A stretch of 64,000 nucleotides of DNA from contig CAWFGO010000003.1 in assembly GCA_963815455.1 (NCBI GenBank), positions 128,001-192,000 on the forward strand. Direction: 5' to 3'. The stretch comes from an uncultured Verrucomicrobiae bacterium (GTDB lineage Bacteria > Verrucomicrobiota > Verrucomicrobiia > Chthoniobacterales > UBA10450). Position 1 is the first letter of the stretch, and each line of letters opens with the position of its first letter. The notes beneath the pieces are model-generated. The model was given only the letters and a program-made list of their open reading frames with translations. It did not search any database and was not told the origin of the DNA. Positions 41,648-44,600 of this stretch are shown here, in pieces. Position numbers and translations under genes: made by a program.

Positions 41648-44600
41648 ATGCCGGCCGATCCTCATCCTCTGGAGACGCTCCTGCGCGAGCGCATTGTCGT
41701 GCTCGACGGAGCCATGGGCACGACCCTCCAGAGCCATAACCTTTCGGAAGCGGACTATCGCGGGAATCGTTTTCGCGATCGAAAAGGCAAGGACCTCAAG
41801 GGCAGTCTGGAACTATTGCAGCTGACCCAGCCGGCGCTTGTCGAGGAGATTCATACCAAATACCTCGAGGCCGGCGCCGATATCATCGAAACCAATACTT
41901 TTAGCGCCACGACGATTGGGCTCCATGATTTTTTGTTTTCCGGAGAACCGCGCGGCGGGCGCAAGGACCAGGAGTTTTTTCAACGCGTGGTGGACGATGT
42001 CGATCTTCGTGCGCTCACCCAAGAGATGAACGTTGAAGCGGTACGGATCGCGCGACGCGCGGCCGATCGGGTGGCAAATGCAACCGGGCAACGCCATTTT
42101 GTTGCCGGAGCGATGGGTCCCCTGCCCGTCACCGGCTCTATCTCTCCCGATGTCGGCGATCCGGCCTTTCGGGCGGTTTCGTTCGATCAACTTCGCGCGA
42201 CCTATTTCGATCAAGCGACGGCGTTGCTCGAAGGCGATGTCGATCTCCTCGTCGTGGAAACCGTTTTCGACACCTTGAATGCAAAAGCCGCGCTTTTCGC
42301 GATCGCTGACGCCGGCGAAAAAATCGGCAGGCGGGTTCCGCTGCTGATCTCTGGAACGGTCACCGACAAGTCCGGTCGCACTTTGAGCGGGCAAACCGTG
42401 GAAGCGTTCCTCATTTCCATCGCGCATGCGCAGCCGCTCATCATAGGTTTGAATTGCGCGCTCGGGCCCGATGAGATGGAGCCGTTCATCGAAGAGTTGG
42501 CGCGAATCTCGCCCTACTTCACCAGCGCGTATCCGAATGCAGGGTTGCCCGATCCGCTATCGCCCACCGGTTTTCCCGAAACTCCGCAAACGTTTTCGCC
42601 AAAAGTTGCCAGGTGGGCGCAGAACGGCTGGCTCAATCTGGTCGGCGGTTGTTGCGGGACGACGCCGGAACACATCAGGGTGTTGGCAAACGCGGTGCGC
42701 GATCTTCCTCCAAGACACGTGGAATCGCACAGTCAGGGGAGCGCACGCGCCTCGCGTGCCGATTTCCGCGCCCCCGCCGAAACCGCGAACGTCCAATATT
42801 CGAAGCGTTGGCTGCCTCACTTCGAGCGTCCCTGGGGCAAATACGCAGTGGCGTTTTCAACACATGAACGCCGTCAACTATCGAGTGGCGAAAGAGACAT
42901 CGTCTTGAATAGCATCCTATACGCTCACGAACATCGACAAATCGAGCTCTACGCGGCCTGCGTAATGCCCGATCACGCTCACCTGCTTTTTGAGCCGCAG
43001 GTGAAAAGCCAGGATGCGAAAGGAGCCCCCGCTTTCTGGTCGTTAACGGAAATTCTTCACGGCATCAAGTCATCGACAGCTCACAAGATCAACAAAGCCG
43101 CTGGAACGCGAGGTCCGGTCTGGGAGAAAGAATCGTTCGATCGGTTGATTCGATCGGAATCGGACCTGCACGAGAAATTTCAGTATATTTGTCGAAATCC
43201 CTGGGATTCGGGCGTTGCTGAACAGGGTGAGGAGTATCCGTGGTTATGGACGCAGGAAGAATCTTCGGCGAGGGCGCCGAAGATGGCACGCGAGGCGCGT
43301 GCGCTCCCCAGCGAAGAAGATCGCGCTCCCGAGGTACTACAGCTCTCCGGCCTGGAGCCGCTCAACATTACGCCGGAGTTCGGCTTCGTCATCATTGGCG
43401 AACGAACCAACATCACCGGCTCGCCGAAATTTTCGAAACTCATTCTGGGAGGCGACTTCGACGGCGCGCTCGTGGTCGCGCGTCAGCAAGTGCAAGGCGG
43501 GGCCAACCTGCTCGACGTCAATATGGACGAAGGGATGATCGATTCGGAAGCGGCCATGACCCGTTTTCTGAATTTGATCGGGAGTGAACCCGATATTTCC
43601 CGGATTCCGATTATGATCGACAGCTCGAAGTGGAGCGTGATCGAAGCGGGTCTCAAATGTCTGCAAGGCAAACCAGTCGTTAATTCCATTAGCTTGAAAA
43701 ACGGCGAAGAGGAATTTCTCCGTCAGGCGCGGCTGGTAAGACGATACGGCGCGGCTGTTATCGTGATGGCGTTCGACGAACAAGGCCAGGCCGACAATTT
43801 GCAGCGCAAGATCGACATCTGTGCGCGGGCCTACCACCTCCTGATCGAGCGAGCCGGCTTTTCCGCGACCGATATTATCTTCGATCCAAACATTCTCACG
43901 GTCGCCACCGGTCTGGACGAACATCGTAATTATGCGCTCGATTTCATTGAAGCGACGCGCTGGATCAAAGAGAACCTTCCCGGCGCGCGCGTCAGCGGCG
44001 GTGTGAGCAATATTTCGTTTTCATTCCGCGGCAACAACACCGTGCGCGAGGCGATGCACGCCGCTTTTCTGTTTCATGCTATTCGCGCCGGACTCGACAT
44101 GGCGATTGTGAATGCGGGTCAGCTTGCCGTTTACGAAGAGATCGAACCCGAGCTGCGCGAACGGGTCGAAGATGTGCTGCTCAATCGCCGCGCCGATGCG
44201 ACCGAGCGGCTGGTCGAATTCGCGGAAAACGTGACAACAAAGGGCAAAGCGCCAGTCAAAGACGAAGCCTGGCGCGGTGAGTCTGTCGAAGAACGGCTGA
44301 AACACGCCCTGGTAAAAGGCATCGTGGATTACATCGACATCGATACCGAGGAGGCGCGCAAGAAAAGCAAGCGTCCACTCGACGTGATCGAAGGCCCGCT
44401 CATGGCCGGGATGAGCGTTGTGGGCGATCTTTTCGGTGCAGGCAAAATGTTTCTGCCCCAGGTGGTGAAGAGCGCGCGAGTGATGAAAAAGGCCGTGGCC
44501 TACTTAATGCCGTTCATGGAAGCGGAGAAATCCGCGGGCGCGAAACCGCAGGGTCGGATCGTGATGGCAACGGTGAAGGGCGACGTCCACGACATCGGCA

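Follow-up and report, generated by a model that had tools for sequence, protein, structure and literature searches.

A REP-flanked RAYT transposase lying in frame within the methionine synthase gene of an uncultured Verrucomicrobiae bacterium, and its relatives inside other housekeeping genes

We studied a stretch of 64,000 nucleotides (hereafter the window; positions 128,001 to 192,000 of contig CAWFGO010000003.1) from an uncultured Verrucomicrobiae bacterium, in which the methionine synthase gene metH carries, between two arms of the repetitive extragenic palindrome (REP) type, the coding sequence of a REP-associated tyrosine transposase (RAYT). The source genome (G000) is a draft of 3.62 Mb in 7 contigs, with 90% completeness. 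As an earlier note on this DNA had read it, metH is a single open reading frame (ORF) of 1503 aa, extending over 41648..46159 of the positive strand with both of its inserts included. The product passed the NF007024 methionine synthase equivalog profile (1929.8 bits vs a cut-off of 1497) and presented all four MetH modules in Pfam (Table 1); both insertion sites are linkers between Pfam domains. The RAYT block corresponds to MetH residues 364-554, between the homocysteine (Hcy) and pterin domains. The motifs announced for this foreign block are all in the sequence: LPHF at residue 389, P-D-H-A-H at residues 441-445 (nucleotides 42968-42982), which includes the HUH pair, and YICRNP with the candidate catalytic tyrosine. 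The insert has no stop codon and no methionine occurs in residues 363-440, i.e., an obvious start is also absent, in line with the same note.

The block is bounded by a terminal inverted repeat whose 46-nt arms are 89% complementary, the first 25 nt being perfect. The 25-mer occurs exactly twice in the window, and two matches were found in none of 100 shuffled sequences. The description of a perfect 25-bp inverted repeat with an imperfect extension was therefore sound, but the arms are not just the halves of a long stem: each of them consists of a tail and two local hairpins (Table 1). As single-stranded DNA (ssDNA) the right arm folds into two hairpins, with z-scores of -4.1 to -4.2. Hairpin 1 is constant; hairpin 2 varies between arms, genomes and dispersed copies yet stays self-complementary. 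In build the arms correspond to a REP and differ from a simple terminal inverted repeat. Each arm comprises 16 codons, and one open frame runs across the two, in agreement with the proposal that they are read through as linkers. A RAYT is usually defined as a gene that stands alone, has start and stop codons belonging to it and is accompanied by extragenic REPs; this copy departs from that definition, its ORF spanning both arms inside the host ORF.

The Y1_Tnp profile (PF01797), which had been proposed as a check for residues 360-560, matched residues 398-486 with an E-value of 1e-6 in the whole protein and of 2.4e-8 when residues 360-560 were searched alone. The NCBIfam profile NF047646, 'REP-associated tyrosine transposase', for RAYT/TnpA_REP proteins of TnpA_Y1 class 2, was aligned over positions 5-145 of its 146 with 80.6 bits (cut-off 80). 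A profile search of the PDB with the insert retrieved 4er8, TnpA_REP, with an E-value of 7.5e-12; 2xm3 and 2f4f were also matched. An AlphaFold2 (AF2) model of the insert alone had a predicted local distance difference test (pLDDT) score of 85.5, with low confidence confined to the arm-coded ends, and its best PDB match in Foldseek was 4er8_A, i.e., TnpA_REP bound to a REP hairpin (E 2.9e-9, template modelling (TM) scores 0.57/0.68). The AF2 model of MetH residues 1-851, based on a shallow alignment of 37 rows, showed three folded units with a mean pLDDT of 73.8; the score was below 50 in the arm-coded stretches 361-396 and 538-579, and in these models the arm-coded peptides look like disordered tethers. 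In alignment A1, Y154 was at least 90% conserved. Of 174 embedded domains, 167 had the complete H-u-H plus Y triad and 172 had the tyrosine; among the short proteins the triad was complete in 51 of 52. Both this count and the RAYT tree described below were limited to domain matches covering at least 145 of the 171 query residues. As a candidate assignment we considered TIRYT (subclass 2.1), described with the terminal-repeat consensus GGGG[AT][CG]A[CG] and a C-terminal helix-turn-helix domain (Quentin et al. 2018, PMC6006769); it was rejected, as that domain is absent from the 171-aa core and GGGGAGCG is not an exact fit to the consensus.

Table 1 Features of the metH locus (window coordinates) and of related loci in the same genome (C1, C2, C3 and C5 coordinates)
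Feature	Position	Strand	Remarks
S-methyl_trans / homocysteine S-methyltransferase domain, PF02574	41696..42697	+	aa 17-350, E 1.4e-84
Left REP arm	42736..42781	+	GGGGAGC tail 42736-42742, hairpin 1 GCACGCG-CCT-CGCGTGC 42743-42759, then imperfect hairpin 2
RAYT (TnpA_REP-like HUH/Y1) core	42821..43243	+	aa 392-532; NF047646, 4er8
HUH motif H443-A444-H445	42974..42982	+	read from sequence; H84 and H86 invariant in alignment A1
Candidate catalytic tyrosine Y513 in YICRNP	43184..43186	+	aligned with the Tyr-bearing YIYINPV stretch of 4er8
Right REP arm	43264..43309	-	same tail and two hairpins, inverted orientation
Pterin_bind, PF00809	43397..44113	+	aa 584-822, E 7.9e-61
B12-binding cap and Rossmann domains, PF02607 and PF02310	44285..44827	+	aa 880-1060 (880-953, 969-1060)
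Second in-frame insert, REP doublet (REPIN)	45123..45273	+	B12/activation-domain linker of metH
AdoMet activation domain Met_synt_B12, PF02965	45281..46099	+	aa 1212-1484, E 5.4e-120
Solo metH-type REP unit, GGGGAGC + GCACGCGCCCTCGCGTGC	~37970-38008	-	edge of a 466-codon minus-strand open frame; C3:165984-166008 = window ~37984-38008
RecG-like helicase with in-frame RAYT	C5:89932-92700	+	922 codons; RAYT 53% identical to the metH insert
AlaS with in-frame RAYT	C2:126199-122843	-	1118 codons; 46% identical
CarB with in-frame RAYT	C1:1469339-1473121	+	1260 codons; 40% identical
Distant Y1/HUH-like genes, C3	533771-534421, 679491-678847, 386143-385580		C3 copy at 386 kb with internal stops
Distant Y1/HUH-like genes, C2 and C1	C2:520570-521202, C1:863683-863237, C1:104421-104984, C1:202084-202803		
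Distant Y1/HUH-like genes, C5	123260-122730, 101167-101655		one on C5 with internal stops

A tblastn search with the insert revealed three further in-frame RAYTs in the same genome, so that the proposed scan for other fusions with housekeeping genes was positive: the hosts are RecG, AlaS and CarB, and each insert has REP-type arms of its own. The RAYT within RecG is flanked by the commonest REP type of the genome, CAGGCTG (~62 units). The remaining Y1-like matches in the genome were at most 30% identical and lay in open frames of 148-239 codons; therefore the close RAYTs matching the two REP populations are the embedded ones only. The nine distant Y1/HUH-like genes of Table 1, at 22-30% identity to the insert, constitute a separate free-standing family.

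The second insert of metH is an in-frame REP doublet with arms at 45123-45169 and 45227-45273, each of 47 nt with two hairpins, which are 89% complementary. It belongs to another REP type than the first insert, with the tail GGGGAGC followed by CAGGCTG-CCA-GCCTG..., the same type that flanks the RecG-embedded RAYT. A full RAYT occupies this second linker in other MetH proteins, namely P0005, P0007 and P0009, which have two RAYTs each, and in L045. Both metH inserts are absent from most relatives and the repeat family is dispersed in the genome, the traits by which an in-frame palindromic element is recognised.

Genome-wide, 83 units made of GGGGAGC and a perfect hairpin were counted, vs 2 with the reversed tail and 1 with the complement tail. 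Most of the GGGGAGC units form inverted doublets ~100-140 nt apart, and 12-17 units are of the metH type (17 by pattern), one of them a solo copy in the window. Variants with a GGGTAGC tail were found in this genome and in relatives. The sequence 5' of GGGG was often TTCC or TC, and no consistent insertion target was found there. Across the REP units, hairpin 2 has a constant core, CGGCAGCTTGCCG in the abundant type, and an outer stem that varies among the copies, a change on one side being matched on the other. Such a pattern reflects strong selection on structure or, alternatively, a copying process in which one side serves as template for the other. Elsewhere in the genome, a 1067-codon open frame at C2:503930-506394 holds two in-frame REP doublets ~2.3 kb apart, and thrS has an AT-rich variable segment (C1:738471-738778) at the ThrS site where relatives, e.g., L037, carry an in-frame RAYT; an origin of this segment from a decayed RAYT/REP was discarded, as it is AT-rich and without REP tail or hairpin.

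The fusion had been treated as a singular oddity, but in the survey of other genomes it proved to belong to a large clade in which such embedding is usual. A word-indexed search limited to proteins of 826-2631 aa gave 1003 proteins matching the RAYT region at E <= 1e-3; among the 120 matches listed there were MetH, AlaS, ThrS and an HrpB-like helicase, and 12 of the 120 had two RAYTs. An exhaustive HMMER scan, which covered 1.84 billion representatives, yielded 5520 matches at E <= 1e-3, of which 70 reached E <= 1e-30. Among the best 150 HMMER matches, 40 exceeded 350 aa in length, with AlaS (17), RecG (5), PurH (3) and ValS-type proteins (2) as Pfam hosts, together with PriA, DnaK, BirA, Ham1, shikimate kinase, pyruvate formate-lyase and DNA methyltransferases. 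We then counted open frames in all six frames at the best 80 loci from one-genome-per-species contigs, a procedure that avoids gene-calling bias. At loci with at least 45% identity, nearly all with Verrucomicrobiota-type titles, 33 of 38 had at least 100 aa open on both sides, 4 were one-sided and 1 was free-standing. At loci with 44% identity or less, mostly of Acidobacteriota, Planctomycetota or deltaproteobacteria, 5 of 42 were embedded, 2 one-sided and 35 free-standing. The host census took in all of the 44 non-free loci but L114, which contains a stop codon, and gave for these 43 loci AlaS in 11, RecG in 11, ThrS in 7, PriA in 4, MetH in 3, no family in 2, and ValS, GcvP, PurH, MgsA and an MmeI-type enzyme once each. 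These census rows are related to one another, and the counts describe the habit of a clade rather than independent events. The commonest hosts are replication-restart or fork proteins (RecG, PriA, MgsA/RarA) and class II tRNA synthetases (AlaS, ThrS), in numbers inflated by shared ancestry.

Among the relatives of the window genome, 15 of 20 listed RAYT matches lie in open frames longer than 800 aa, and the metH architecture recurs, with the same arm peptides, in the independent assemblies of L002, L003 and L035. In four free-standing relatives (L031-L034) the frame opens at an ATG situated a few codons before the left arm, continues through both arms and stops just past the right arm. In the distant free-standing RAYTs the best flanking inverted repeat was located after the stop in 17 loci and spanned the stop in 5; the distant RAYTs thus show the classical arrangement, and the open frame running from end to end is therefore a derived trait of this clade. 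Judged from these sequences, embedding appears to be the habit of a whole RAYT clade of soil Verrucomicrobiota that lives almost only inside host ORFs.

We compared 30 metH loci, in 29 of which both anchors were found; the genome of one of them, L009, is flagged as unpublished. The linker between the Hcy and pterin domains has 4 residues in six loci of other families of the order. In the family of the window, a RAYT and REPs with the same arm peptides were present in L001, L002 and L003 (genomes G000, G018 and G023), with inserted lengths of 609, 597 and 672 nt, all multiples of 3. In L004 (genome G005) the RAYT is present and the gene is in pieces lying in different frames, and in L036 the RAYT forms the C-terminal end of an Hcy-domain gene. 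A doublet of the same REP type without RAYT was found in L020, of the same family, and in L022, of another family of the order. The remaining loci of the window's family had odd linkers that were short (6-20 residues) or inserts of another repeat-like kind. The earlier note had called this junction permissive, recalling that MetH is split there in some bacteria, and in the family of the window metH is indeed split at the Hcy/pterin junction, by in-frame stops or frameshifts, in seven loci (L006, L007, L008, L011, L012, L019 and L027); insertion of a REP/RAYT may promote gene fission at this boundary. The alignment that the note had asked for thus delivered empty alleles but not the exact insertion junctions, since the linker is too variable among relatives to be aligned at the nucleotide level. 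In L027 (G029), a small ORF lies inside the 539-nt gap between the metH halves; it may be similar to the four-helix-bundle proteins of 23S rRNA intervening sequences. The tree of the metH core (30 loci) placed the three RAYT-bearing genes together with nine that lack a RAYT in a single clade of 12 rows (SH-aLRT 97).

Our own Nei-Gojobori count on L001, L002 and L003 gave, for the RAYT core, proportions of nonsynonymous (pN) and synonymous (pS) differences of 0.14-0.16 and 0.76-0.79, the latter saturated; those of the Hcy domain were 0.13-0.15 and 0.60-0.65. The values of the RAYT core are much like those of the Hcy domain; the divergence of the insert is therefore no younger than that of the host gene and took place under protein-level constraint: the RAYT core is under purifying selection. 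In the arms pS was only 0-0.29, a rough value given the 16 codons per arm, and the arm-coded residues were at least 90% conserved in 37 MetH sequences, which suggests that the nucleotide sequence itself is constrained or that the arms are homogenised with REP copies elsewhere. In a FastTree phylogeny of 226 RAYT domains, the RAYTs clustered by host gene and site, with 32 label changes for all labels vs a shuffled mean of 122.5; the six host labels required 12 changes, the minimum being 5. A HrpB-hosted clade (99*) and a clade of the second MetH site (99*) nested within the clade of the first MetH site (SH-like supports), and so did several short proteins. The RAYT of the window shares 65-72% identity with AlaS-hosted RAYTs of other organisms, but only 46% with the one that AlaS hosts in G000. 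The nested clades, the label changes and the identity pattern together indicate that the unit has changed host genes, though rarely.

The central claim of the earlier note, a REP-flanked RAYT fused in frame within the MetH linker, is upheld by the profiles, the fold, the independent genomes, the purifying selection and the empty and doublet-only alleles. Starting from what was observed, i.e., the anatomy of the element, its family membership by profile and fold, its recurrence, the selection pattern and the series of site occupancies, we regard 42736-43309 as probably an autonomous REP/RAYT element ('REPtron') that has neither start nor stop and is read through as a linker-tethered domain of MetH. 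The element lies in frame and in the sense direction, within the flexible stretch that connects the homocysteine barrel to the pterin barrel, and would be expressed from the promoter and ribosome-binding site of the host gene. The ribosome would pass the left arm, the RAYT and the right arm, giving a MetH with a HUH/Y1 nuclease domain of ~140 residues on two disordered tethers. The REP arms would play a dual role: as ssDNA, the tail-plus-two-hairpin structures that the RAYT recognises, and as protein, spacers that spare the enzyme from disturbance. Insertion would take place through transposition of ssDNA, after which selection would favour sites that are in frame and tolerated; a tolerated sense insertion in an expressed gene would provide a working host protein together with an expressed transposase, and other insertions would be lost or would decay to REP doublets. 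The element would be mostly inherited vertically with the host gene, with an occasional jump to a new gene or site and sometimes a loss; what is left after a loss would be a lone REP doublet, an odd short linker or a split host gene. For the metH RAYT itself, one old gain with repeated loss seems likely, and the core tree does not tell it from several gains. The embedded RAYTs would also service the dispersed REP doublets.

Several points weigh against this account. From the family and the selection pattern we infer that the fusion is translated, that MetH functions with the insert, and that the RAYT is catalytically active and transposes through ssDNA, with E. coli TnpA_REP as the source for activity and ssDNA transposition in the family (PMC3479197, PMC8266576); the sequencing runs listed for this genome are four soil-metagenome DNA runs, with 0.04 of sampled words each, and include no RNA run. 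The NF047646 cut-off was exceeded by 0.6 bits only, and in the whole-protein context the score, 75.4 bits, is under it. No genomic REP unit is identical to the arms that flank the RAYT, the differences amounting to 3-14 of 48 positions; there is therefore no sign of very recent mobilisation. A genome of the same genus (G001, locus L014) has no RAYT at the junction and carries there a doublet of a different REP type. The RAYT-bearing metH genes were not resolved as a group: the best tree takes 3 changes, of which the starred branches force 1. The arm statistics rest on 16 codons each, and gene conversion with other REP copies, rather than selection, could explain the conservation. As RNA, the element folds with a 46-bp terminal stem (minimum free energy -264 kcal/mol, z -5.0 in 20 shuffles), which could be an RNase target or an excision signal.

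A rival reading is that of a static domain, one that entered metH once, long ago, and was kept for a benefit to the host such as the upkeep of REP doublets or an ssDNA task; the insert would then be domesticated and not selfish. The saturated synonymous sites of the RAYTs of G000, G018 and G023, with a pN/pS of ~0.2 and a divergence at least like that of the host gene, agree with such an exaptation, and so do the strong clustering by host gene and site, the lack of a REP unit identical to the arms, and the general description of RAYTs as vertically inherited, housekeeping-like and domesticated (as put by Bertels et al. 2017, PMC5581495). We nevertheless hold it to be unlikely: the copies of HrpB, of the second MetH site and of free-standing proteins that nest (99*) within the clade of the first MetH site have moved between genes, the hosts are many and unrelated (AlaS, RecG, ThrS, PriA, MetH, ValS, GcvP, PurH, MgsA, DnaK, BirA and others), and the RAYT is missing in the genome of the same genus and in 9 members of its own 12-row metH clade, which indicates that it is dispensable for MetH. 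An exapted domain overlaps with the autonomous element proposed here, and the sole difference is whether mobility continues.

Alternatively, the element might be removed before the protein is made, through precise ssDNA excision by the RAYT in part of the population or through RNA cleavage and ligation at the terminal stem. Precise excision from ssDNA is known for Y1 transposases of the IS200/IS605 family, the 46-bp RNA stem can form between the ends, and the arms are conserved at the nucleotide level. Removal, though, would require neither a stop-less element nor an open frame downstream, yet most of the near relatives are open on both sides, the four copies of this genome are all in frame and the inserts of L001-L003 keep the frame; moreover, the covariation is in the local hairpins of the arms and not in long-range pairing, and we know of no bacterial RNA ligation system that acts on such stems. 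Nothing found requires removal before translation, and we consider it quite improbable. That a chimeric join or indel errors had fused a free-standing RAYT gene into metH would be conceivable in a 7-contig draft at 90% completeness, but such an artefact is very hard to reconcile with the same architecture and arm peptides in the independent assemblies mentioned above and with its presence in dozens of MetH proteins from different sources; besides, errors break frames and do not make an open frame of 1503 codons. Hardly credible at all is an intein-like element lost by protein splicing. The lifestyle is alike, with an in-frame insert in conserved housekeeping genes, but the block begins with G-S and ends with L-P, without Cys, Ser or Thr at its first position or a terminal His-Asn, no Hint or intein family was among the Pfam matches, and the fold is HUH/Y1 and not Hint. 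By its ends and by Pfam the intein reading was thus rejected; the earlier note had already observed that intein ends are lacking.

Taken beyond metH, the autonomous read-through element may, as a tentative proposal, represent a transposon lineage that is obligately in frame, and with it a separate way of life for mobile DNA; the REP ends of this lineage would be dual-coded, and its transposase would be an internal domain of essential enzymes. If this were true, the transposase would need no promoter, ribosome-binding site, start or stop. The RAYTs embedded in RecG, MetH and similar proteins would be the sole cognate enzymes of the REP-doublet populations, the ~62-copy type matching the RecG-embedded RAYT only, and RecG, PriA and MgsA may bring the nuclease to stalled forks, at which hairpins arise in ssDNA. 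Where the element is lost, a scar would stay in the linker and genes may be driven to split between domains, which would link REP insertions both to such fission and to linker growth. RAYTs are usually pictured as single-copy, free-standing, domesticated genes of unclear function; a read-through clade would change this picture and would offer a route by which a transposase joins host proteins without splicing machinery. It would also furnish a natural catalogue of permissive insertion sites (in MetH, AlaS, ThrS, RecG and PriA), explain many proteins labelled as 'fusion' or 'annotation error' in Verrucomicrobiota metagenomes, and provide a testable system for whether RAYTs are selfish or useful, whether the embedded domain is active and whether REP doublets are serviced.

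RAYTs and in-frame palindromic repeats are already known, and we found no published description of an autonomous RAYT inside host reading frames. No RAYT embedded in frame in a host gene was met in the literature searched, which included text of PMC3733652, PMC5581495, 10.1101/2021.07.10.451892, PMC6006769 and PMC8266576; their supplements may list such fusions. Like inteins, including those bearing homing endonucleases, the metH insert would be a selfish unit that lies in frame in a conserved housekeeping gene, is expressed by the host and is hard to delete imprecisely; unlike them, it has no Hint or splicing residues, presumably stays in the mature protein, and encodes an ssDNA HUH nuclease instead of a LAGLIDADG or HNH enzyme. 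With the TnpA of IS200/IS605 elements (IS608, ISDra2) it shares the Y1/HUH fold (Foldseek E 1e-6 to 2e-5) and the subterminal hairpins at the ends. It differs from them in the score with NF033573 transpos_IS200 (17.9 bits vs a cut-off of 55), in the absence of tnpB and in its tyrosine motif, Y-x3-N-P, as compared with the Y---Q of TnpA_IS200, given as the signature of subclass 1.1 in the text of Quentin et al. (2018, PMC6006769).

A further likeness is that with REPtrons, i.e., E. coli TnpA_REP (PDB 4ER8) with its REPs and bacterial interspersed mosaic elements (BIME) and the RAYT/REPIN systems of Pseudomonas. The HUH/Y1 family is the same by profile and fold, the metH element is flanked by inverted REP hairpins with a conserved 5' tail, and dispersed inverted doublets of the same REP type and a largely vertical inheritance are common to both. 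The tail GGGGAGC/GGGTAGC resembles the GTAG tag that, according to the text of Di Nocera et al. (2013, PMC3733652), marks classical REPs. In the classical case the RAYT gene stands alone, is delimited by a start and a stop that belong to it and has the REPs outside its ORF, whereas the metH-type ORF spans both arms inside a housekeeping ORF and has neither start nor stop. Di Nocera et al. also report REPs inside ORFs of the Verrucomicrobium Opitutus terrae, and many intragenic REPs in replication and repair genes. The metH inserts are like such intragenic REPs and like the Rickettsia palindromic elements (RPE), palindromes that lie in frame within functional protein genes and are translated, and the one at 45123-45273 is exactly of this kind. 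RPE and intragenic REPs are short and non-autonomous, whereas the RAYT insert of metH is a complete autonomous unit with a transposase of ~170 aa under purifying selection.

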